Below, piece by piece: positions 41,217-59,769 of a DNA stretch of 64,000 bases. The DNA lies in NCBI RefSeq assembly GCF_004010195.1, contig NC_057749.1, positions 11,513,540 through 11,577,539 on the forward strand, written 5' to 3'. A program made the translations under genes and the position numbers. The first letter of the stretch is position 1. Each line of letters begins with the position of its first letter. This DNA comes from Chiloscyllium plagiosum (Eukaryota). A model generated the notes under the pieces. That model was given only the letters and a program-made list of their open reading frames with translations, was not told the DNA's origin and did no database searches.

Positions 41217-43498
41217 GTAGGCTTTTTGCCCTTTTTAATGAGGCCTTACCTTGCGTCAAGGTTTGCACTGCTCTTGGACATATTTTGTAGCTTTTGCTTC
41301 ACATGAAATTCTAGATGGTAAGACCATAGAACAAGTCAATAACTTTTTAACCTACCCATAACAGCTGCAAAGTTACTAATCTGTTTGGATATTCAAAGGT
41401 CTGGGGAAAAATCATCCTTTTAATCATTTCTCTTACTGTGTCTGTACTATCTCTGGTTTGATAGTAACTAATTTAATTCTGTTGGGCAGCTAGATAGACC
41501 TTCGAAATCTGTGTGAAGGCAGCGCATTTCTCTTAAAATAATTTAAAAGTTTAAAGGAAAGTGGAAAGGATTGTCATATTATTACCAAATGCTTAATGTG
41601 CATGTGTTTGCCTCTGTAAAAAGATTGGATTGAGCTAGATACGTGATCAATTAGGTGGATAAGAGACAGCAGTGAGAACAGCTGCATGCAGTTGAAAGGC
41701 CTCCCTGTGTTTCAGGTTATTGGCACTCGAGTCAACAACAAGTCATTTTCAGGTTTTTCTTAAGCTGTCCAGTTTTTTTTTTGGTTTGTTGTGTTCTCTG
41801 AGCTCCCCTGACAGCAAATTCCATTCTACAGGATTGGCACAATACTTCTGTGTGGGTATAGAGTTCCACTTTTGAGTCCTTTGGTTCTTGTCACCCTAGC
41901 ATGTATATTAACAAAGGTTAAATTTGGGATGCTGCACAAAGCTAAATATTGATTGCTTTAGCTTCCTACCATTTAGATTGTCAGTGAGAATTTTGACCAC
42001 ATACACAGTGCATTATTTTTGGCACTGTTTAGTGAATGACATGAATGCACAAAGAATGAGTGAACATTGAAGGTATAATATTGAAATATTAAATAATACA
42101 CTCCAGTTATTTCAGGCCTTTGTGCAAGTCAGCAAATAACATTTTATGTTGTTACATGTCTACCGAAGAATAAAATGGCTTGATACCAATAGTATTCTTA
42201 ATTTAAGAGTGTATGCACATGCAGTGATATGTAGCAGCAGCCATGTTGGTTCACATAACTTGTTAAGATCCCCCAGATTCTGTCAAGGAGCCATGCTTGA
42301 TAGCGTCAGTGTGGCTGCTGCTTCACATCACACAAATTAACGTTTGTTCACTTTCTTCTTTCTTCAGTATCATCGGAAAGACAACCTAATGCTAACATGG
42401 CTGAATTGCAGTTTAAGTTTGTAGTTTTGTCATTGTTGGTTTTATATCAATGTACAAACCATTTTCAGAAGCTATAATTAAACAGCACTAAGTATCTTTG
42501 GAAAATGTCCCCATGTGCTTTCTGGCACAAACTATATTTTGTGCTGGCAGAGCTAAATTAATTTGTTTGACAAACAATGACAGTGTTTTTCCTTTGCAAT
42601 GCTTCCTGTTCTGAAAGTTAGGATAATGTTGGCTATTTTGCTTGAAAGCTGAATGAAAACAAAACAGATCAATAATAATTCAGGCATTGGGTCAAATTTG
42701 CTGTCTAATGTAAAGATAAATTTATTTTAACTGGCACACTTTATTTTAGCTGGCACACTTAATAATAATACTCAAATATCCAAAGTTTTTAATGGATTAG
42801 CATGATGTCTCAGTAGTCAGTTGAGGATGCAAGTGAGAAGGATGTCTGCTGGTAAGTTTAATACAAAGTTGCATTATTATTTAAGTGATTAATGCAATAA
42901 GTAAAGCATAACAGTGATGTTTATACCTCCTGCATCATGTTTCAATTATCTTAGTGTATGATTTTATATTTATTATTTGTGGATCTCTTGATTAACTGCA
43001 ACATTTGATCAATCGGCGCAAATCTGGTTCCATACGGTTGGTTAATAAAAGGTTTACTGCATAACTGGAAGAGAGTAGGTAAGATGAATGCTGATCACTT
43101 GGATAGTGAGACTGGAGAGTTGATGATGAAGAATACAAATGGCAAAGTTACTAACTCAATGTTTTACTTCAGTTTTCATTGTATAACCTGTTATTGGGGT
43201 GGTGCACCCACAAAGATTGTAGAAAGGGAGGAACTTAAAACAATCATCACTGGGGAAAAGTACTGAGCAAACCTTTAGGATTGAAGGTGAACAAGTTCTC
43301 AAGCCCTAATGGCCTACATCCTAGGGTCATAAAGGAAATGGCAGCAGAGACAGTGGATCCATTGATTAGAATTTTCCAAAACTCCCTGGATCTGGGAAAG
43401 GTTCTAGTGGGTTGTAAAAAAAATAGTACTCAAAAATATGGCTGGCGCATAGTCCAAATATGTGATATCTGAGCTCTGACTCACCAATGTTTCCTTAA

Positions 43499-44048
43499 AG
43501 TTTGTGAAAAGATTTGTAGCTCGGGTGCTCATTGTTGTGGTTCTGTTCGCCGAGCTGGGAATTTGTGTTGCAGACATTTCGTCCCCTGTCTAGGTGACAT
43601 CCTCAGTGCTTGGGAGCCTCCTGTGAAGCGCTTCTGTGATCTTTCCTCCGGCATTTGTAGTGGTTTGAATCTGCCGCTTCCGGTTGTCAGTTCCAGCTGT
43701 CTGTTGCAGTGGCCGGTATATTGGGTCCAGATCGATGTGCTTATTGACTGAATCTGTGGATGAGTGCCATGCCTCTAGGAATTCCCTGGCTGTTCTCTGA
43801 ATTCCTAGAGGCATGGCACTCATCCACAGATTCAGTCAATAAGCACATCGACCTGGACCCAATATACCGGCCACTGCAACGGACAGCTGGAACTGACAAC
43901 CAGAAGTGGCAGATTCAAACCACTACAAATGCCGGAGGAAAGATCACAGAAACGCTTCACAGGAGGCTCCCAAGCACTGAGGATGTCACTTAGACAGGGG
44001 ACGAAACGTCTGCAACACAAATTCCCAGCTCGGCGAACAGAACCACAA
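43499..44048. mobile_element. Fold-back PLE element (family C), arms approx. 255 bp, 14-bp TSD caatgtttccttaa
   Basis: TSD at 43485-43498 and 44049-44062; mirror ORFs REFLEAWHS...RRLPSTEDVT on both strands; hammerheads at 43570-43609 (-) and 43974-44013 (+). Confidence 0.92.
43974..44013 (+). ncRNA. Minimal type I hammerhead ribozyme motif
   Basis: gca-CTGAGGA-t-gtc-(loop)-gac-GAAA-CGTC-tgc (stem I gca/tgc). Confidence 0.75.
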
Positions 44049-44904
44049 CAATGTTTCCTTAATTTCAGTAGTCCTCTCTCCTCATTTCCCAAAAACTAAT
44101 CCAAATGGACTGAATTTGGTTGGTGTTTTTGGTGCATCCCTAATTACAAAAATTACAAATGTAATTCCTTTATCCCAGTCCTCTGAATAGTCTTGACTAT
44201 AAGCCCTCAATGCAGTTTTTAAAGTTTGATGCCACCATTCTAATGCTGCTTGCGATTGTGAATGGTACACAGTGGGTTTGAGTTATTTTATTCCTAAGTT
44301 ATCCTTCTTTGTAAAAGTTGACCCTTGATCCAGTTTTATCTCTGAGGGTACTCTATATCTAGTGGGAAAAAAAAGAGTACCTCTGCTACAGTCCTTTTAG
44401 CCATGATGCTGCATAATAGAAAGGCCTCTGGAAATCTAGAACTAACATTATGGTCAGCAAATTGTTTAAGGTAGGGCTCCTGGCACAATCAATAAAGACC
44501 ATTGTAAAAGGTTCCTCAAATGCAGGAATGGGTATTAAGGGTGTTGGTTTTATCACTGCCTATGGTTTTCCAATTACTTGACACACATGACATCTCCAGC
44601 AAAATTCAACCACATCCCTATGCAGTCCAGGCCAGCAAAAATATTTCTGTATTTTGGTTTAAGTTTTCCTTCTTTGCAATTGACCATCATCTGGTAATTC
44701 ATATGACAAACTATCTTCAGTGAGATTTCCTTTTCTCTCACCACCTGAAGATTTCTCTCTCCCCCTATTTCTATCCCTCACAGATCAAAATTGATGTCAG
44801 AAGCCAAATTTTTTTGATTTATGTATCAGCTCACAATCATCTGCCATTTCTGCTGCTTATTTTGGAGTTTTAAGTCTCTGCTCTTCCACGTGAATTCTCA
44901 CTAT

Positions 44905-46150
44905 TTCATAGAGAAACACAGCATGGAAACAAACCCTTCGGTTCAACTCGTCCATGCTGACCAGACATAGCAGCCTAATTAAGTCCCATTTGCCAACACT
45001 TGGCCCATATCCCTCCATCCCTCCAAACCCTTCCTATTCATATACCCATCCAAATGCCTCTTAAATGTTGCAATTGTACCAGCCTCCATCACTTCCTCTG
45101 GCAGCTCTTTCCATCCATGCACCACCCTCTGCGTGAAAAAGTTGCTCCTTAGGTCCCTTTTATATCTTTCCCCTCTCACCCTAAACCTAAACCCTCTAGT
45201 TCTGGACTGCCCCAACTCGGGGAAAAGACTTTGTTTATGTTATCCATGCCCCTCATGATTTTATAAGCCTCTATAAGGGCACCCTTCAGTCTCTGACGCT
45301 CTAGGGAAAACTGTTGCAGCCCCTCCCTATAGCTCAAGTCCTCCAATCCTGGCAATAAGCGAGTTTTGAGAAGATTTGTAGTTCAAGTTGAGGTTCTGGA
45401 TGTAGGTTTGCTCGCTGAGCTGGAAGGTTCGCTTTCAGACGTTTCGTCACCATACGGTAACATCTTCAGTGAGCCTTCGAATGAAGCACTAGTGGTGTAA
45501 CCTGCTTTCTGTTTCTATGTTTGGGTTTCCTTGGGGAACCTTCCAGTTCAGAGAGCAAATCTACATCCAGAACATCCTTGTAAACCTTTTGTGAACCCTT
45601 TCAAGTTTCACAGCATCCTTCCGATAGGAAGGAGACCAGAATTGCATGCAATATTCCAAAAGTGACTTAACCCATGTCCTGTACATCTGCAACAAGCCCT
45701 CCCAACCCCTATAGTCAGTGCTCTGACCAATAAAGCATGCCAAATTTCTCCTTCATTAACCTATCTACCTGCGACTCTACTTTCAAGGGGCTATGAATCT
45801 TCACTCCAAGGTCTCTTTGTTCAGCAACATTCCCTAGGACCTTACCATTAAATGTATAAGTTCTGTCCTGATTTGCTTTCCCAAAATGCAGCCACCTCCC
45901 ATTTATCTAAATTAAACTCCAACTGCCTGTCCTCAGCCCATTGGCCCATTTGCTCAAGATCCCGTTGTAATCAGAGATAAGCTTCTTCATTGTCCATTAC
46001 ACCTCCAGTTTTGGTGTCATCTGCAAACTTACTAACTATACCTCCTATATTCACATCCAAATCCTTTATAAAAGTGGCAAAGCAGTGGACCCAGCACTGA
46101 TCCTTGTGGCACACCACTGGTCACAGGCCTCCTGTTTGAAAAGCAACCCT
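44905..46150 (-). mobile_element. CR1-like LINE 3' part nested in the Gmr1-like element
   Basis: RSNFFTQRVVHGWKELP and LLEYCMQFWSP on the minus strand. Confidence 0.85.
45357..45572. mobile_element. Asymmetric fold-back PLE element (family D)
   Basis: gttctggatgtaggtttgctcgctgagctggaaggttc versus gaaccttccagttcagagagcaaatctacatccagaac; minus-strand hammerhead tca-CTGAAGA-t-gttacc-gtat-ggtgac-GAAACGTC-tga at 45435-45472. Confidence 0.78.
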
Positions 46151-47510
46151 CCACCACCGCCCTCTGTCTTGTGTGAACTGAATTTTTTAACTCCTCCTCA
46201 ATAATTGTCTAAGAATGTCATATATTTGATGAATTTTATCCTCTTTCTTTGTTTGATTCTTTCACACTCAATATACATTTGACCAAGTTCTCTCCTTAAG
46301 TTCCTGAAATGTTATCTGTAGGCTTCTGGTACATGTTCATATAATACTACATATAATTCTTATAATACGATGGCATTTTTTCACCTCGTTGTACTCCCCA
46401 AAGACCTCTGTTTGATGGTGATGCAATTACTTCAGTAGCTCTGCTACCAACTTTCGTTTGGATCAAAAATACCCACATGGCCACCGTCCATTTAATTTGT
46501 TTTACCACTTTCTCAAATGAAATGAAAAAGGTTTCGACATCCTTCTCATTGAACTTAGGCAACGCTTGGATAGATTTAAACAGATCCCCACTGGGCTGTT
46601 GACTATGATGGAATTGCTCTCCATCACTGTCCTCATTACTACTCTTTCATTTGATATCTATAACCCTTAGTTTAAGTCGACTGTGAGTTCTCCGTTCCAA
46701 TCTCTGAAGTTCAACAACTCTGTTTCTCCTTTTCGTCTGTCTTTCTCTGGTTTTCCCTCTTGCTCCTTTTTCGTCTGGGACTCTTGCTGTTGCTCCCTTT
46801 CGTCTCGGGCTCTGGTCTCTCCTTTTTCTTTGGCTTTAAATTGTAATCCAGTCTGTTTAATTTCCCTTTCACATTCAAGCTCCTGCATTTGCAATTTAAT
46901 TTTAACAATTGAATTTAATTTTCCAAAGAGTCTAATGGCATTTCTGGCAATTCTAAATACTGCATTATTGCCTCAACTATCTCCCCTTTCCTTGTAGACA
47001 TAGGAAACCCCAATTCCAGCTTGTTTGCTACATCCAAAAGTTTTGCTTTGCTCCTTTTCCATAAAAGTCATGAAGTACTTCTTCCACACCCCCCTCCCGA
47101 AACCTCTTAGTGCCTGAAAGAGCCATTACCACACAATTATACCCTGTGTAAACCAACTGAATTCACCTCCTGAAATTAAGACCAGTAACACTTGCCACTC
47201 TCTGCCTGAGAGTTCAATAATCCAAAGCCTAACCCGGACTTAGATATTTTGATTCTGACGAGCCCCCCGTTTGTCATGGACCAGACCCTGCCTTTTTCTT
47301 TATTAGAAAGATAATTTTAAGATGTTGTGTTCCAGATGCAATTCGATTGCCCAAACTGCTCAATGTTATGTAAGACACAATTTATTCATAGCTGTGGTTA
47401 AAATACATCAAAACAAAGAAATAAAAGAATTGGCTGAGCTGTAATTCTATTGGCGAACTTAACAGAATAATAGATACAGTAACTGTTACTAATTAACTGT
47501 TCCAATATAG

Positions 47511-51439: not shown

Positions 51440-53550
51440 TAGACCAAAGACATGGCAGCAGAAATTAGGCTGTTCAGGCCACCTAGCCTGCTCCGCCATT
51501 CAATCGTGACTGATAAGTTTCTCAACCCATTCTCCCGCTTTCTCCCCATAACCCTTCACTATCAAGAAGCTATCTATCTTTGTCTTAAATATACTCCAGA
51601 ACCTGGCATCCACAGCTTTCTGTGGCAGTGAATCCCATAGATTTGCTACTCTCTGACTGAAGAAGTTTCTTGTGTTCTAAAAGGTCTTCCCTTTACTCTA
51701 AGGCTGTGCCCTCGGGCCCTAGTCTCTCCTACTAATGGAAACATCTTCCCAACATCCACTCTGTCCAGGCCATTCAGTATTTAAACTTTCAATTACATCC
51801 CCCATCATCCTTTCAAACTCCATCGAGAATAGACCCAGAGTCATCAAATGTTCCTCTTATGTTAAGCTTTTCATTCCAGGGACCATTCTCGTGAAACTCT
51901 TCTGAACACTGTCCATGGCCAATACATCATTCTTGAGATATGGGACCCAAACCTATGAAACTGCTCCAAATGTGGTCTGATTAGACCATCAGAAGTACAT
52001 CCCTGCTTTTATATCTCAGAATAAATGCCATTGTTACATTTGTCTTCCTAACTACTGATTCAACCTGCAAGTTTAATTTGAGGGAATCTTGGACAAGAAC
52101 TCCCAAGTCTTTTTGCACTTCAGACTTCTGAATGTTCCCCCCCCTTTAGAAAATAGTCCATGCCTTTGTTCTTTCTACTAAGGTGCATGACCACACGTTT
52201 TCCCACATTGTACTCCATCTGTCACTTCTGTGCCAACTCTCCCAACCTATCCAAATCTTTCTGCAGCATCCCCACCTCCTCAGTGCTACCTATCTTTGTA
52301 TCGTCTGCAAACTTAGCCTGAATGCCCTTGGTTCCTTCATCGAGATCTTTAATGTGAAAAGATGTGATCCCAACACTCGCGGAACACCACTTGTCACTGG
52401 CTGGCACCCTGAGAAGGGCCTTTTTATCCCCATTTTTCGTCTTTCTGCCAGATAGCCGGGTTTCTATCCATGCTGGCACCGTACCTGTAGACCATGGAGC
52501 CCTTGCCTTACTCATTAGTCACCTTGTCAAAGGTCACCTTGAGTCTAAGTAGATAACATCCATTGGTTCTCCTTGGTCTAATCTGCTTGTTACTCCCTCA
52601 AAGAATTCTGGAAGATTTGTCAGGCATGATCTACCTTTGATGAAACCATGCTCACTCTGCCCTATTTTACCATATGCTTCAAAGTATTCAGAAATCTCAT
52701 CCTTCGCAATGGGTTCCAGGATCCTACCCATGTCCAAGGTTAGGTTAATTGGTCTGTAATTTTCCGTTTTCTGCCTTATTCCCTTTTTAAACATGGTTGT
52801 TGCATTAACAATTTTCTAGTCCTCTGGGACCTTTCTGATTCTAGTGATTCCTGAAAGGTTGCCACTGACCCTTCCACTATCTCTTCAGTTTTGTCTCTTA
52901 GAACTTTAGGGTGCAGTCCATCTGGTCCAAGTCATTTATCCACCTTCAGGCCATTCAGTTTTCTAGCACCTTCTCCTTGGTGATGGCCGCTATACTCAGC
53001 CCTGCCCCCTTACTCTCTAACTTCTGGGAAATTACTCTTGTCTTCCACTGTGAAGACTGATACGAAGTAATTATTCAGTTCCTTAGCCATTTCCTTGTTC
53101 CCCATTACTATCTCATCTATATTATTTTCCAGCAGACCACTGTCCACTTTTCCCTTTCTTTTGTTCTTTATATATCTAAAGAAACTCTGACAGTCTACCT
53201 TTACATTACTGGCTTGCTTACCCTCATTTTTAATCTTCTCCCTTTTTTTTGTTTGTACCCTCTTGGTCTTTGTAAGCTTCCCAATCCTCTGGTTTCCCAC
53301 TGCCCTTTGCCACATTATATGCTTTCTCTTTGATGCTATCCCTGACCTCCCTAGTCACCTGTGGGTTGCCTCATCCTCCCTGTGTCATTCTTCTTTTTCT
53401 GTAGGATGAATCTCTGCTGTGTCTCCTGAATTACTTCCAGAAGCTCTTGTCATTGCTGTTCCACTGTCTTTCGTGCTAGGCTCCTTTCCCAGTCGATTCT
53501 GCCCAGTTGCTCCCTCATGCCTCTGTAGTTTCCTTTTATTCAGCTGAAAT
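51440..53550 (-). mobile_element. CR1-like LINE ORF2, approx. 2 kb
   Basis: ENYRPINLT...HGFIKGRSCLTNL...DVIYLD; FADDTK. Confidence 0.88.
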
Positions 53551-54099: not shown

Positions 54100-56480
54100 A
54101 CAGTCATAGAGATGTGTAGCAGGGAAATTGATCCTTTGGTTTAGCTCATCCATGCCGACCAGATATCCTAAATAAATCTAGTCCCATTTGTCAGCATTTG
54201 GCCCATATCCCTCTGAACCTTTCCAACGACATGCCCATCTAGATGCCTTTTAAATGTTGGAATCATACCAGCCTCCATCACTTTATCTGGCAACTCATTC
54301 CATACACTCAGCACTCCCTGCATGGAAAATTGCCTATTGAGTCTCTTTTAAATCTTTCCCCTCTCACCGTAAACCTACACCCTCTAGTTTAGGATTCCTC
54401 CTACAGGGTAATAAATCTTGTCTATTTACCCTAACTGTGCCCCTCATGATTTTATAAATCTCTAGAAGGTTATGTCTCAACTTCTAGCACTGTATGGAGA
54501 ATAGCCCCAGTCTGTTCAGCCTCTCCCTATAGCTCAAACCCTCCGACCCTGGCAACATGTTTGTAAATCTTTTCTGAATCCTTTCAAGTTTCACAATGTG
54601 CTTCCTTTTGCAGGGAGACTAGAACTGCATGCAGTATTCCAAGAATGGCCTAATCAATATCCTATACAGCTGCAATATGACCTCCCAACTCCTATATTTG
54701 ATGCTCTGACCCAGGAAAGGAAAACAAACCAAATGTTGTCTTCACTATCCTACCTGCGACTCCACTTTCAAGGTGCCATGTATCTGCGCTCCAAGGTCTC
54801 TTTGTTAAGCAACACTCCCCAGGACCTTAGCATTAAGTGTATAAGTCCTGCTAAGATTTGCTTTCCCAAAATGCAGCACCTCACACTTATCTAAATTAAA
54901 CACCATCTGATCAAGATCCCATTGCAGTCTGAGGTAACCTTTGCTATTCACTACACCTCCAATTTTGGTGTCATCTGGAAACTTACTACACTTCCTATGT
55001 TCACGTACAGATCATTTATTTAAATGATGAAAAGCAGTGGACCCAGCACCGATCCTTGTGGCACTCTGCTAGTCATGGGCCTTCAGTCTGAAAAGCAAAC
55101 CTCCACAGCCCTCTGTCTTCTACCTTTGAGCCAGTTCCATATTCAAATAGATAGTTCTCCCTTTCTGGTGTTACCTAACCTTGCTAACGAGCCTATCATG
55201 AGGAAATGTATGGACTGCAGTAGGCGTTTGACATAGATCATGTTCACTGTTCTGCCTCATCAATCCTCTTTGTTACTTTGTCAAAGTTTGTGAGACATGA
55301 TTTCCCATGCACAATGTTAACTATCCCTAATCAGTCCTTGCTTTTCCAAATACATATAAATCCTGCCCCACAGGATTCCCTCCAACAACTTGCCCATCAC
55401 CAATGTCAGGCTAACCGGTGTATACTTTTCTTAAATAGTGACACCGTGTTAGCCAACCTCCCCTCTTCTGTCACCTTGCCTATGGCTATCGATGATACAA
55501 ATATTGCAGCAAGAGATCCAGCAATCTCTTCCCTGAGCTTCGCATACAGCTCTAGGTACACCTGACCAGGTCCTGGGGATTTATGCACCTTTATACATTT
55601 TGGACATTTTTCAAGATGTCTCTATTTATTTCTCCACGTTCGCTATCTTTCATATCCATCTCCACAATAAACACTGATGGAAAATACTCATCTAGTATCT
55701 CCCCCATCTGTTGTAGTTCCACACATCGTTGACTGTGCTGATCTTTAAGAGACCCTAATCTCTCCCTAGTTATCCTTTTGTCCTTAATGTATTTGTAGAA
55801 TCCCTTTGGATTCTCCTTAACCCTATTTGCTAAAGCTACCTCATGTCCTCATTTACCCTCCTGATTTCCTCCTACTTGCCTTTATACTTTTCTAGTGAAT
55901 TACTAGATTTCTGCTGTATATACCTAACATATGCTTCCTTCCTATTCTTGTCTAAAACCTCAATTTCTCTAGTGATCCAGCATTCCCTCCACCTCCCAGC
56001 CTTGCCGTTCACACTAACAAGAACATACTGTCTCTGGAATCTTACTGCGTCATTTTTGAAGGCTTCCGATTTTCTAGCCCCCTGTCTTTACCTGTGAACA
56101 TCCGCCCCCAATCAAGGTTTGAAAGTTCTTGCTTAATGCTGTCAAAATTGGCCTTCCTCCAGTTTAAAACCTCAACTTTTAGATCTAATCTATTCTTTTC
56201 CATCACTACTTTAAAACTAGTACAATTATGGTCACTGGCTGCAAAATACTCCCCCACTGACACCTCAGTAACTTTTTAATTCCCAAGAGTAGATGCAACT
56301 TCATTCATAAATACATCTACATCAGATACTGTGTTAGACAATATTTGTGTACACACTTAACAAATTTCTCTTCATCCAAGCCCTTAACACTATGTCAGTG
56401 TCAGTCTATGTTTTGAAAGTTAAGATCCCCTACCATAACTGCCCTTTTACTCTTACAGATAACTGAGGTCTCCTTACAAA
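54100..56480 (-). mobile_element. CR1-like LINE ORF2, approx. 2.4 kb
   Basis: SDHN endonuclease motif, NWRKANFD, KSPGPG...REEIAG; CR1 tail at 54100. Confidence 0.85.
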
Positions 56481-56594
56481 TTAAGTGCTCAAGAAAAAGA
56501 TTAACTCCACCATCAAGTCATTGTTTAGATCTATGGTTTAACTACTGAGTAACTTGATTAATATTATGTACTTTTCATACATTGTGCTAACCAG

Positions 56595-56779
56595 AGCTGA
56601 ACAGATGTCTAGTGTGCAGTACACACTACCCAAGACTGCTGGTGGGGATCGGGCGGACTTTTGGCGGTTTCGTGGACTTCGTAGTTCAAAGAGAAATTTG
56701 AGAAAAAGCAGAGAAGATCTTGCAGCTCAGCCAGTTCATACCAAGTTTCCAGCTTATGAGAGAGTAGTCCTTCGAGAAG
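56595..56779 (+). CDS. TJP1: TJP1 exon (approx. 14), U5 region: [62 protein letters not shown]
   Basis: accag/gtaaag boundaries; 185 nt. Confidence 0.97.
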
Positions 56780-57633
56780 GTAAAGGGAAAGGAACTGAGT
56801 GTTTACTGGGGTGAGCAAAATCACTCTCTGCTCACTTGGGGAGAGACCCTGTCAACCTCATTTTCTTTATTATTTGTTCTCGATGGGAGTACGTAAAATC
56901 AATTCCATTTCATCAGAATTTCCTTTAGAAAGGACAGTTAAACTTAATTCACATGTAATCGAACCAATCAGTATTGATTCTCTTAAGTATTAGGTTGTGA
57001 TTAATTTAAATAAATGAATACCTCAACCTTTTGGGAAACATTGAAGATTGTTGAAGCTGGTGTAATCTCAAAGGTTTTGCCTTTACCTGGTCCCTGACCA
57101 GGGCAGGAGTACGTCATACCTCACTCAGACAGTTGACAGGAAGCAGAGAGCCGGCAGATGGAGTACATCAAAATACTTGCTGTTCCTATTGCAGCATTGG
57201 TCACTGTTCCCAACAGACTAGAGATATGATTACCAATAGATTGGGGATATGATTACCACTTTATGCAGTTTTGTGTGTTGCTGAGAAAAACACTTTTAAA
57301 TGAAGACATGTAAATGATTGTTATTGTAGTGCCTGATTTGCATGTTCAATCCTGGAATGATTAAATCCACTGATGTGCAGATGTCTTTGAGATTTTTAAT
57401 CTTTGTCAGTTATACATCTATCAGTCCTATACATTGTAAATGCCTTTGGTCCCATATTTCCTCCTGTCCTCCTCCCTCCCCCGAATTAATAGCTTTTTTT
57501 CATCTTTTCTAGGCCGGATGTAGTGCAAATTCAATGTCTAAACAAGTCAAATTGTGTTTAAATAATTAACAGTGATTTACAATATACAATGTACAATATT
57601 GCTTATGATAATTTTGGGTTATCTTTTTTAAAG

Positions 57634-58376
57634 TTCTGTTCACCGAGCTGGGAATTTGTGTAGCAGACGTTTCGTCCCCTGTCTAGGTGACATCCTCAGT
57701 GTTTGGGAGCCTCCTGTGAAGCTCTTCTGTGATGTTTCCTCTGGCATTTATAGTGATTTGTCTCTACTGCTTGCGATTGTCAGTTCCAGCTGTCAGTTCC
57801 AGTTGTCCGTTGCAGTGGCCGGTATATTGGGTCCAGGTCGATGTGCTTATTGATTGAATCTGTGGATGAGTGCCATGCCTCTAGGAATTCCCCGGCTGTT
57901 CTCTGTTTGGCTTGTCCTATAATTGTAGTGTTGTCCCAATCAAACTAATGTTGCATGTCATCTGCGTGTGTGGCTACGTAGGATAGCTGGTTGTGTCGTT
58001 TCGTGGATAGCCACACACACAGATGACACGCAACATGAGTTCGACTGGGACAACACTACTATTATAGGACAAGCCAAACAGAGAACAACCAGGGAATTCC
58101 TAGAGGCATGGCACTCATCCACAGATTCAATCAATAAGCACATCGACCTGGACCCAATATACCGACCACTGCAACGGACAGCTGGAACAGGCAACCGGAA
58201 GTGGCAGAGACAAACCACTATAAATGCAGGAGGAAACATCACAGAAGCGCTTCACAGGAGGCTCCCAAGCACTGAGGATGTCACCTAGACAGGGGACGAA
58301 ACGTTTGTAACACAAATTCTCAGCTCGGCGAACAGAACCACAATGAGCACCCAAGCTACAAATTTTCTCACAAACT
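57634..58376. mobile_element. Fold-back PLE element (family C) inserted at the TJP1 exon-15 acceptor; TSD ttatct(6-7)aaag
   Basis: TSD at 57619-57633 and 58377-58392; arms 57634-57976 and 58008-58337; GIY-YIG C-terminus HEFDWDNTTII...REFLEAWHS; hammerheads at 57663-57702 (-) and 58269-58308 (+). Confidence 0.92.
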
Positions 58377-58392
58377 TTATCTTTTTTTAAAG

Positions 58393-58488
58393 CTGGTTTC
58401 CTGAGGCCAGTAGTCATCTTTGGACCTCTTGCTGATGTTGCTCGAGAGAAACTTGGACGGGAAGAACCAGATTTGTACGAAATTGCAA
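58393..58488 (+). CDS. TJP1: TJP1 exon (approx. 15), start of [35 protein letters not shown]
   Basis: ttaaag/gtaaga boundaries; 96 nt; the acceptor is the second copy of a TSD (see findings). Confidence 0.96.
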
Positions 58489-59769
58489 GTAAGATTTTCT
58501 GTTCAGTTCCTTAAAATCATCGTCACTTACTGCGCAGTAGGCCATTTGGCCATCAAAATTAATCTGGCTTCTCACTGCAATCTGGTTCAACTCCCCTACT
58601 CCATAGTCCTTCAAAAGTTCATCCAGTTTTCCTTTGAAATCTATGACTGTTTCTACATTGCATGCCTTTGTGGTCAGCAAGTCTTTATCTGCATTTCTTG
58701 GCAATGATTGGTGTTGGGGAATGTTCTTTTAAGTGAGGTTTGACCTCCGATACTTCATTCAAGTGGCCATAATTCAAATGAGCATGGGTATTAAATTTCA
58801 TAGCTGAGGCTATTTGAGCAGAGCTATCATCATTATGATAGAGACTTACACAGATGCCTGCCAATGTGTTAGCTTCCAGGAGCAGTGTGTATCAGGTATT
58901 AACCTTGGTGTTTCTTAATAACCATAAAAATATGCAACTAAACTGGATATTTCTTGTAATTCACCATATTGCAAAGTAATTCATCCCAAAGTTACATTTA
59001 GGTGAGACTCCGCAATGCTGCATTTTATACCAACATTGAGTTAAACTGAACTCTTTCAATTTTGATCTTTTGTCAGTTATATATGTATCAGTCCTATGAA
59101 CTATAAATGTCTTTAATCCCATATTTCCTGTTGTCCTACTCCTCCCCCAGAATAACAATGACCTGATGAATCTTTTCTAGGCCAGATGTGGCACACAACT
59201 CAATGTCCAAAGAAGTCGAATTGTGTTTAAGTAATAAACAGTGTTTTACATTTGAAATTTAGTTCAGGTTCCTAGCGTCCCTTTGTCTGAAGGCAACCTG
59301 CAATTAACCAAGCTTTCTAAGTATGAGTCAACCCAAATGTTTCAAACTGCTAAGTGGAGGTTTAGATCTAATTTCAAGCTACAGTGCGCATACAGTCTTG
59401 TAGGTAGTTCCTTTGCAGACCCAATACTCTCATTTCACTGAACTGAATTTGCTGCAATTTTGTCCCATTAGTATTGATATTTTCTTAGAATTGCAGAAAT
59501 TTACAGCATGGAAGAAAGCCATTCAGCTCAATATATATGCACTGGTCGAAAACAGCTATGCAAATAAATTCCACTTTCAGGCTCTTGGTCTTATTGTCTT
59601 AGAGTGCCTATCCACTTTTTTTCCTCAAAATGTTATGAGGGTTTCTATCTCTGCCACTGTTTCCAGACAGTGAGTTAGTTCCACATCCCATCACTTGCTC
59701 GATGAAATATTTCCCTTTGTAACTCCTCTAAACCTCCTCTCTCTTCTTTTGAATCTATGGTGTCCTGGT

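Follow-up and report, generated by a model that had tools for sequence, protein, structure and literature searches.

A classic route to exon skipping and to disease is the insertion of a retroelement into the polypyrimidine tract or the AG, with human NF1 as an example (PMC3219598); in that gene 4 of 14 Alu insertions fell in the AG or the tract and the downstream exon was skipped. Penelope-like elements (PLEs), as portrayed in extracts of two further reports (PMC8557442, PMC11167929), carry an inverted, 5′-truncated copy next to a sense copy and have tails of 30-40 bp at one end. The window that we have analyzed, a stretch of 64,000 nucleotides from Chiloscyllium plagiosum, contains in an intron of TJP1 (ZO-1) a 743-bp element, 57634-58376, flush against the start of the downstream exon at 58393, which is, on the evidence of its sequence, a 5′-truncated PLE inserted as an inverted pair. 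We consider it probable that this copy of an endonuclease (EN)-bearing PLE is old and fixed, and that its insertion has been tolerated and is roughly neutral, not a regulatory device. Coordinates are collected in Table 1.

Table 1. Features of the TJP1 locus within the window (positions counted from the first letter of the window).
Feature	Position	Strand	Remarks
Upstream TJP1 exon ("exon 14" of the original prediction)	56595..56779	+	donor GT 56780-56781
Native branch-point-like CTTAT	57602..57606	+	A57605 precedes the upstream AG by 28 nt; read from sequence
Upstream TSD copy, polypyrimidine tract + AG, ttatcttttttaaag	57619..57633	+	direct repeat; decoy acceptor, unused in the data seen
Putative 53-nt cryptic exon with terminal TAG	57634..57686	+	from translation; inside the predicted stem; gtgaca next
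Left PLE copy, inverted, tail-less	57634..58007	-	complementary to the right arm at 57634-57976
Right PLE copy, TJP1 sense	58008..58338	+	end of the GIY-YIG endonuclease ORF and 3′ untranslated part
Minimal hammerhead-like core	58269..58308	+	gca / CUGAGGA / u / gucaccu-agac-aggggac / GAAA / cgu / u / ugu; manual match to PMC4209133 features
38-nt PLE tail, right end only	58339..58376	+	holds branch-point-like CTCAC 58367-58371, A at 58370
Downstream TSD copy, polypyrimidine tract + AG, ttatctttttttaaag	58377..58392	+	direct repeat; acceptor in use
Downstream TJP1 exon ("exon 15" of the original prediction)	58393..58488	+	start of the GUK region; donor GT at 58489
Second foldback of the same PLE family, other TJP1 intron	43499..44049	-	TSD aatgtttccttaa at 43486-43498 and 44050-44062

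The exon numbers 14 and 15 are labels taken over from the original prediction; what was checked is the identity of the gene as ZO-1 and the continuity of its exons. The 3′ edge of exon 14 is fixed by the RNA joint that leaves from it, while its 5′ edge is placed from the AG at 56593-56594, the RNA contig ending at 56592. The peptide encoded by 56596-56778 scores 115 bits against the ZO-1 chains 3tsw/3shw and 41 bits against ZO-3, one of three such ZO-1 versus ZO-3 comparisons for the exon peptides (139 versus 85, 115 versus 41 and 48 versus 28 bits); no ZO-2 chain occurs among the hits. Exon 14 aligns with residues 160-220 of 3shw_A and exon 15 (peptide 58395-58487) with residues 222-252, residue 221 being encoded by a split codon. 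Joining 56779 to 58393 leaves the ZO-1 protein sequence unbroken, and spliced RNA contigs continue from the downstream exon into the next one. Of the MAGUKs, ZO-1 is the one that the exon peptides match best, and the genome has a single locus of this kind. Because the exon-14 peptide finds three ZO paralogues, at 100, 70 and 52% identity, TJP1 is judged to be a single-copy gene in this 3.56-Gb genome.

A repeat search establishes that the element is flanked by direct repeats of the form ttatctttttt(t)aaag, with 14 nt in register and one extra T. Since G57633 can equally well be read as the first base of the element (the reverse complement of ...GAACAGAAC), the duplicated target amounts to 14-15 nt, with 1 nt of microhomology at the junction. 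The original prediction held that the target-site duplication (TSD) comprises the polypyrimidine tract plus the AG, the acceptor having been duplicated by insertion of a mobile element, and this is confirmed by both copies and by the exon start at 58393; its further statement, that the upstream copy retains the native intron context, agrees with the sequence. The branch-point consensus yUnAy was used for motif calls. The upstream copy is a complete native 3′ splice site, with branch region, tract and AG, and it is the first to be transcribed. The cryptic frame that starts from the upstream AG reads (V)LFTELGICVADVSSPV-stop, with the TAG at 57684-57686 followed by gtgaca, and the 53-nt stop-containing cryptic exon that had been proposed is, from its translation, present as sequence.

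The family to which the element belongs was identified through longer genomic copies, the copy in the window being itself 5′-truncated and made up of approximately the last 370 nt, doubled. A search with the element in its own genome listed at least 101 matches, from 40 scored of 7091 first-look candidates. Longer foldbacks, at loci L036 and L033, contain a reverse transcriptase (RT) and then a GIY-YIG-type ORF. The RT is recognized at positions 5168-5581 of L036, with an RVT_1 score of 31.6 bits (cutoff 29.6, E = 1.7e-07). Pfam scores for GIY-YIG in the longer copies, 15.5 and 15.2 bits, lie under the 22.6 cutoff; the ORF shows the pattern ...VVYKIPC..C..YIGQTGR...EH, and a protein atlas places it closest to clusters of animal GIY-YIG proteins (score 0.95, 202 features in common), which we treat as a lead only. 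A GIY-YIG domain C-terminal to the RT is found in this way, each individual score being weak. Over 93 aa, the arm ORF at 57929-58288 shares 85 residues (91%) with the C-terminal end of the L036 GIY-YIG ORF, and Pfam returned no meaningful match for the arm ORFs of the window itself. An inverted, 5′-truncated partner lies beside the sense copy in the window, in L033 and in L036, and a one-sided tail of the published length is present, 38 nt on the right arm only. It is because of the endonuclease-end arms, the one-sided tail, the TSDs of the sister foldbacks described below and the published architecture of PLEs that we assign the element as a PLE inverted pair.

The inverted arms, 57633-57976 and 58008-58338, are ∼340 bp in length (the repeat search returns overlapping segments of 199 nt, 92% complementary, and 178 nt, 88% complementary), and when aligned to each other they show 27 mismatches over 330 aligned positions (8.2%) and 2 gap events. 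The loop is formed by 57977-58007, a further 5′ extension of the left copy by ∼27-31 nt whose reverse complement, read manually, carries on the endonuclease reading frame; the left copy also has a 13-nt tandem duplication at 57778-57803. In an alignment of 45 rows none of the left or tail-less arms carries the tail, and the tail-less arms end near ...GAACAGAACCACAA. RNA fold prediction gives −611.2 kcal/mol versus −240 kcal/mol for shuffled sequences (z = −39.9), with a stem that starts from G57633, additional pairing between flank and tail, and the A of the upstream AG unpaired. That the arms form a hairpin, as had been claimed, is thus supported by a predicted RNA fold of very high stability. 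What the original prediction had missed is that this hairpin represents the standard inverted-pair form in which PLEs insert, and no special kind of hairpin element.

Sister foldbacks elsewhere in the genome illustrate this form of insertion. All 16 sister loci have foldback structure, a count that is biased in that the loci were picked by full-length match to the hairpin. Flanking direct repeats of their own, 10-17 nt in length with at most one mismatch, were found for 14 of the 16, versus 2 of 240 in a control where left and right flanks from different loci were paired. The mean divergence between arms is 6.5% within a locus versus 8.1-9.5% between loci, a difference which implies that each foldback arose at its own insertion. 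We also considered a "master hairpin" with a fixed centre from which all foldbacks were copied and rejected it, as hairpin centres vary by locus and arms are closer within loci. A match start shared at query position 375 in the genome search reflects the centre of the query itself. The second foldback in TJP1 has 255-nt arms that are 97% complementary and a 14-nt loop; it is opposite in orientation and younger. The TJP1 locus also documents, for this genome, a foldback mode of PLE insertion with clean TSDs.

Turning to the choice of acceptor, 56779→58393 (GT..AG; printed in the output as 56776→58390 "cut +3") is the sole exon-exon joint listed, and it is found in each of the four sequencing runs examined (24 listed). 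Support comes from contigs at depths of 232.9 (run X15) and 40.7 (run X1), from 3 raw RNA reads with 3 different starts (run X19) and, in a related organism, from a contig at depth 167 (run X2). Among the 15 joints listed of a total of 22 in these runs, the remaining 7 being weaker, none leads from 56779 into the element, and neither 56779→57634 nor 57686→58393 occurs, and the power of this result is low, as the data consist of assembled contigs, in which rare forms are dropped, and 3 raw junction reads, all obtained without NMD inhibition. Use of the upstream AG as the acceptor of a poison exon, as originally proposed, finds no joint into 57634 among those listed for the four runs. Exclusive use of 58393, one half of the outcome that the original prediction had set against itself, holds as far as the data reach, with only 56779→58393 listed. 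One X15 contig runs from exon 14 into the element, extending 28 nt past the junction, below the 31-letter criterion for bridging, with 0 mismatches and including a base that is private to this copy. Contig depth in X15 (16.4 for intron 14 versus 4.4 for intron 15) could hint at slow splicing, but such depths are poor measures and we have set this aside.

These observations are, in our view, best accounted for by a tolerated insertion. The PLE would have landed as a sense copy with its 38-nt tail, now the right arm, and an adjoining inverted, tail-less copy, now the left arm. We infer a staggered cut of the target across the final 14-15 nt of the intron, with repair copying the tract and AG to both sides and with the downstream copy left flush with the exon as the acceptor in use. 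A new branch point is most likely, and the best candidate, a match to the consensus motif, is the CTCAC of the tail, with A58370 lying 22 nt upstream of the used AG; the motif sits in an AG-free zone (58356-58390) and a 16-nt tract follows it. The upstream copy would be a silent decoy, likely because no usable exon comes after it, and likely also because the sole donor beyond it is a weak GTGACA buried in the stem and because its AG stands at the foot of the ∼340-bp duplex. For a complete native site that is transcribed first, some use would nevertheless be expected a priori, with stop-carrying products that could go to NMD, and the contigs and few raw reads leave room for use of the decoy at a low level. 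As to age, the intron of a closely related organism, B, whose intron contig ends at 57486, differs by 15 of 480 letters. Because the two arms differ at 27 of 330 positions, the insertion would predate the split from organism B if the arms started out identical.

With a branch-point-like CTCAC already present in the tail, 22 nt before the used AG, splicing can be explained without the hairpin, although the hairpin probably helps by packing away 700 nt along with the cryptic sites. This bears directly on an alternative that we regard as unlikely, namely that the arms pair and so bridge the native branch point (approximately A57605) to the downstream AG along a path of ∼28 + 54 nt, with the upstream AG and every AG within the element hidden. 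The extreme stability of the predicted fold (−611.2 versus −240 kcal/mol), its stem beginning at G57633, fits such a bridge, as does 58393 being the sole acceptor seen among the joints listed, but with a CTCAC at the canonical 22 nt and a 16-nt tract adjoining that AG a long-range bridge is unneeded, and the fold leaves the A of the upstream AG unpaired. The effective distance from branch point to AG would, moreover, be 80 nt or more, and distances of at least 80 nt are long for vertebrate introns. In yeast introns, RNA structure has been documented to bring branch point and AG closer together and to mask AGs, as described in extracts of PMC3239191.

Much less probable is a regulated switch in which folding, helicases or ADAR would set the choice of AG, a 53-nt poison exon or long stop exon would result and NMD would tune ZO-1. 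The sequence does contain what such a switch would need: the decoy acceptor is intact, and the in-frame TAG has a GT behind it. ADARs edit long near-perfect RNA duplexes, and the predicted stem is of this kind; NMD would, in addition, keep such products out of sight in steady-state RNA, the kind of RNA analyzed. Yet there is no 57634 junction among the joints listed in any of the 4 runs, and GTGACA, which is part of the predicted stem, has no G at position +5. The RNA shows apparent A>G and T>C differences (58088, 58239, 58305, 58308 and 58320) that we considered as possible ADAR editing; they match the family-majority bases at depths of thousands, probably stem from cross-mapped paralogues and are not to be read as editing. 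With a second family copy harmless in another intron, and with the foldback being the default form of the family, the structure needs no functional explanation. The structure-, ADAR- or NMD-dependent switch suggested in the original prediction is, in short, unsupported. We see only a very slim chance for a conditional ZO-1 gate, where the duplex would hide the decoy and stop exon and leave the tail-proximal AG to be used, and where unwinding or heavy editing of the duplex, or a hammerhead-like core on the sense strand, would free the decoy or cut the intron and lead to NMD; were it true, this would be a transposon-born structural switch placed exactly on the acceptor of a conserved junction gene.

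By manual reading the hammerhead-like core fits the description of the minimal hammerhead motif (min-HHR), including the four extra features named in PMC4209133. In the region of the cleavage triplet most family copies read GAAACGTC, with GUC as the family majority. Neither the window copy nor a younger copy was matched by Rfam hammerhead models at E ≤ 10, no covariation was found in the core among the family copies seen, and Rfam at the gathering threshold returned 0 matches on the whole window. For single motifs of metazoan PLE min-HHRs, in vitro cleavage is reported to be undetectable (PMC4209133). Apart from trivial hits, region scans with Rfam at E ≤ 1 and E ≤ 10 brought up only mir-466, at the centre of the palindrome and on both strands, with 28.7 and 25.3 bits where the gathering score is 85; we read these weak matches as palindrome and CA-run artefacts.

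That the locus is an artefact, a palindromic chimera created in sequencing or assembly, is scarcely credible: foldbacks are known to trouble assemblies (as noted in excerpts of PMC8557442) and no independent contig among those listed bridges the right junction of the element, but the arms, which should be identical in an artefact, differ by 8.2% and two indels, the element has a TSD of 14-15 nt around it, its sister loci share the design and bring TSDs of their own, and the contig from an independent run enters the left arm for 28 nt with no mismatch.

As a probably tolerated insertion, the locus offers a natural substrate for studying how the spliceosome chooses between two identical acceptors and how a long intronic duplex affects that choice. 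Among described systems it is closest to the EN+ PLEs (Penelope/Poseidon, Neptune, Nematis), with which the family shares severe 5′ truncation, an inverted truncated partner, a tail at one end and, in its longer copies, an RT followed by GIY-YIG, to which a manual reading would add a hammerhead-like motif near the 3′ end; what is unusual is the position of the window copy, flush with a splice acceptor in use, and not its structure. Intronic inverted SINE pairs, for example inverted Alus, form long dsRNA and are ADAR substrates. The TJP1 element resembles these in that transposon sequence would form, within one pre-mRNA molecule, a duplex several hundred bp long, and differs from them in that both of its arms would have been made in one insertion event and in that paralogues cross-map to it in RNA data.

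The min-HHRs of PLEs (PMC4209133) are, on a manual reading, matched in the CUGANGA...GAAA core, the extra base between 9 and 10.1, the G10.1-C11.1 pair, the long helix II, the palindromic ACGU in the place of helix III and the family-majority GUC triplet; unlike them, the motif in the window has a helix I of only 3 bp by the same reading, no covariation among family copies seen and no match to Rfam models. The stems of yeast COF1 and UBC13, as presented in extracts of PMC3239191, exemplify the mechanism originally proposed for TJP1, with a shortened branch-to-AG distance and masked AGs; these stems are short, native and verified by mutation, whereas that of TJP1 is a 340-bp transposon duplex, predicted only, with an alternative branch-like site next to the AG. 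Finally, the Alu and L1 insertions of NF1 (PMC3219598) are likewise TSD-flanked retroelements in an acceptor tract or AG, while the TJP1 exon is joined normally in all runs examined and the insertion appears to be old. The TJP1 element thus provides a natural counter-example to insertions that destroy acceptors, the TSD having rebuilt the tract and AG, the tail offering a branch-like site and the exon being retained, and it illustrates how a splice site that has been hit can be rescued by insertion geometry, which comprises the length of the TSD, the orientation and the sequence of the tail.

The direct repeat flanking the insert bears out the target-site duplication (TSD) of the polypyrimidine tract plus AG at the TJP1 (ZO-1) acceptor, and every coordinate of the original prediction proved correct when the sequence was read again. 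In a repeat search the duplication spans 14 nt in register, the second copy carrying one extra T, and the inverted arms (57633-57976 and 58008-58338) are recovered as two segments that overlap, one of 199 nt (92% complementary), the other of 178 nt (88%). G57633 can be assigned to the duplicated target as well as to the element, which leaves a junction microhomology of 1 nt. Arm-versus-arm alignment gives 27 mismatches over 330 aligned positions (8.2%; 6 are CpG transitions) together with two gap events, the left arm having a 13-nt tandem duplication at one of them. The 38 nt that lie 3' of the right arm (58339-58376, the tail) have no counterpart on the left side.

Features of the window and splice joints across the intron
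Feature	Position	Strand or orientation	Remarks
Upstream TSD copy, intron end	57619-57633	+	ends ...gggttatcttttttaaag
Insert	57634-58376		743 bp
Downstream TSD copy	58377-58392	+	ttatctttttttaaag; exon from 58393
Hammerhead-like core	58269-58308		right arm; gca/CUGAGGA/u/gucaccu-agac-aggggac/GAAA/cgu/u/ugu
Second, younger foldback of the same family, other TJP1 intron	43499-44049	opposite orientation, tail on minus strand	
Retroelement fragments with RT-like or integrase-like open frames (examples)	44082-44282, 45971-46208, 52222-53354, 54805-55011		
Joint, run X15	56779 to 58393		1 contig, depth 232.9
Joint, run X1	56779 to 58393		1 contig, depth 40.7
Joint, run X19	56779 to 58393		3 raw reads, 3 starts
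Joint, run X2	56779 to 58393		1 contig, depth 167

We aligned four of 24 listed sequencing runs, of which X15, X1 and X19 (raw RNA reads) carry the species label of the window and X2 comes from a close relative, organism B. The exon-proximal AG is the acceptor in use: all four runs contain the GT..AG joint from exon 14 to exon 15, as numbered in the original prediction, and the contigs of X1 (1768 nt) and X2 (1734 nt) extend into neighbouring exons. A joint from 56779 to the upstream acceptor (57634) is absent among the 15 best-supported of the 22 joints in these runs, as is a joint from 57686 to 58393, in data where contigs lose rare forms, three raw reads have no power and transcripts with the stop would be depleted by nonsense-mediated decay (NMD). 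The remaining joints listed all lie inside the element and derive from other family copies. A switch dependent on ADAR or NMD finds no support: mismatches of the A>G and T>C kind in these runs coincide with the majority bases of the family and were not taken as editing. One 912-nt X15 contig (depth 16.4, 0 mismatches) extends from exon 14 across the intron and reaches 57661, 28 nt inside the left arm and under the 31-letter bridging criterion; it matches a base private to this copy. Unspliced X15 contigs have a depth of 16.4 over 56784-57564 versus 4.4 over 58488-58600 in the next intron, with exons at ∼233-245, a contrast that might reflect slower removal of the foldback-bearing intron, contig depths being poor measures.

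Exon peptides score much higher against solved ZO-1 than ZO-3 chains (139 vs 85, 115 vs 41 and 48 vs 28 bits). Exon 14 aligns with residues 160-220 of 3shw_A and exon 15 with 222-252, and because the alignments meet at the split codon 221 the junction 56779|58393 gives an unbroken protein. A search of the genome with the exon-14 peptide returned three loci (100, 70 and 52% identity) that we read as TJP1, TJP2 and TJP3; on this reading the insertion lies in the sole TJP1 copy. Exon 15 of organism B differs at 58443 and 58456, one change being synonymous and the other Gly to Ala by codon reading, and the solved ZO-1 chain likewise has Ala there.

The insert is a Penelope-like element (PLE) foldback with a TSD. 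Searching it against its own genome (3.56 Gb) produced 7091 first-look candidates, and the 40 scored gave at least 101 matches; among the matches listed about 16 distinct loci, including that of the window, match the whole foldback (82-91% identity), and many other copies (94-95%) match only the right arm and reach further 5'. Two loci with longer foldbacks, L036 (4208-6591) and L033 (4223-5578), contain open frames with reverse transcriptase (RT; RVT_1 31.6 bits, cutoff 29.6) followed by an ORF with the pattern ...VVYKIPC..C..YIGQTGR...EH, whose GIY-YIG match is weak (15.5 bits, below the cutoff of 22.6); these RT and GIY-YIG frames are broken by stops. The nearest neighbours of the downstream ORF in a protein atlas are animal GIY-YIG clusters (0.95, 202 shared features), a pointer to endonuclease identity rather than proof. 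The hallmark of PLEs is an RT with a GIY-YIG endonuclease downstream of it (PMC8557442). The right arm of the window element encodes the last part of this ORF (85/93 residues identical), and the 31-nt 'loop', reverse-complemented, by our reading carries on the endonuclease frame, so that the truncation point of the left copy simply lies ∼27 nt farther toward the 5' end than that of the right one. The inverted copies of L036 are longer (>600 and about 980 nt, by homology), and the tail is on only one end. An inverted 5'-truncated partner beside the sense copy (PMC8557442) and a one-sided tail of 30-40 bp (PMC8557442, PMC11167929) are published features of PLEs. PMC11167929 links the PLE tail to two reverse-transcription start sites and shows a PLE protein cutting, and then extending, both strands of the target. 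Among the raw RNA reads, 23 from family copies depart from the window just past ...GAACAGAACCACAA, the tail boundary (58343), and a few enter A-runs near 58307 and 58316 (region 58296-58316), a pattern reminiscent of where reads stop at the RT start sites of that paper.

Flanking direct repeats (10-17 nt, no more than one mismatch) occur at 14 of 16 foldback loci versus 2 of 240 mismatched flank pairs, hairpin-centre positions vary between loci, and mean arm divergence is 6.5% within a locus and 8.1-9.5% between loci; by these sequences every foldback is a separate insertion event. The loci were chosen by full-length similarity to the foldback of the window, and it is this selection, not a hotspot, that keeps the centres a few tens of nt apart at most. 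The tail-less arm varies at its outer end, which reads ..gttgttgtgg or ..tgtgg or, in the window and another locus (L003), has neither. The second TJP1 foldback has 255-nt arms (97% complementary), a 14-nt loop and a 13-nt TSD, aatgtttccttaa, spanning 43486-44062 with its TSDs; the TJP1 introns between 43200 and 56300 hold many further retroelement fragments. By hand tally the TSDs of the 14 loci are ∼71% A+T (140/197 bases, raw composition); under the A/T-rich target preference that they hint at, insertion into polypyrimidine tracts would be natural.

That within-locus arms are closer than between-locus arms, each foldback being its own event, suggests that arms are identical at insertion. 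On this assumption the 8.2% divergence corresponds to ∼4% per arm, compared with ∼1.6% per lineage between window and organism B introns (15/480 letters differ). On such a rough clock the insertion would predate the split from organism B, and a functioning TJP1 would long have carried it.

How is the acceptor preserved? A staggered endonuclease cut across the terminal 14-15 nt of the intron would have left the downstream TSD copy directly abutting the exon. The stretch before the used AG (58356-58390) is free of any other AG and includes CTCAC (A58370, 22 nt from the AG) and TTTAT (A58379, 13 nt). Branch points follow the yUnAy rule, by which the tail can supply one, and tail plus TSD copy may thus form a complete new 3' splice-site module. 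The upstream site retains a native branch-like CTTAT (A57605), and the predicted cryptic frame is there as well, translation in the exon-14 frame from the upstream AG reading (V)LFTELGICVADVSSPV-stop, then gtgaca. The site is nevertheless unlikely to be defined as an exon, since what follows is either a weak donor (no G at +5) in the predicted stem or an 855-nt pseudo-exon. By fold prediction the arms can form a very stable duplex, 57590-58420 folding at -611.2 kcal/mol versus -240 ± 9 for shuffled sequences (z = -39.9), with a predicted stem that begins at G57633, encloses the cryptic TAG and following GT and leaves the A of the upstream AG unpaired. While a hairpin that places the native branch beside the second AG, as originally modeled, has a yeast precedent (PMC3239191), such a bridge is not needed when the tail can supply a candidate branch point, and we consider it unlikely. 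We favor the tail-plus-TSD module.

By manual reading a candidate motif in the right arm also fits the hammerhead catalytic core together with four extra features of PLE minimal hammerheads, listed by Cervera and De la Pena (PMC4209133) as a base between 9 and 10.1, a G10.1-C11.1 pair, a long helix II and a palindromic 15.2-16.2; most family copies have GAAACGTC here, giving a GUC triplet. Helix I has just 3 bp by our reading, no covariation occurs in the core among family copies and Rfam hammerhead models do not match the element even at E ≤ 10; in the same paper single motifs gave no detectable cleavage.

As a PLE insertion form the element is ordinary, and what is noteworthy is the position of the insertion together with its benign outcome. 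In human NF1, Alu insertions in the acceptor AG or tract lead to skipping of the next exon (PMC3219598), whereas the TJP1 exon that follows the PLE foldback is spliced in.
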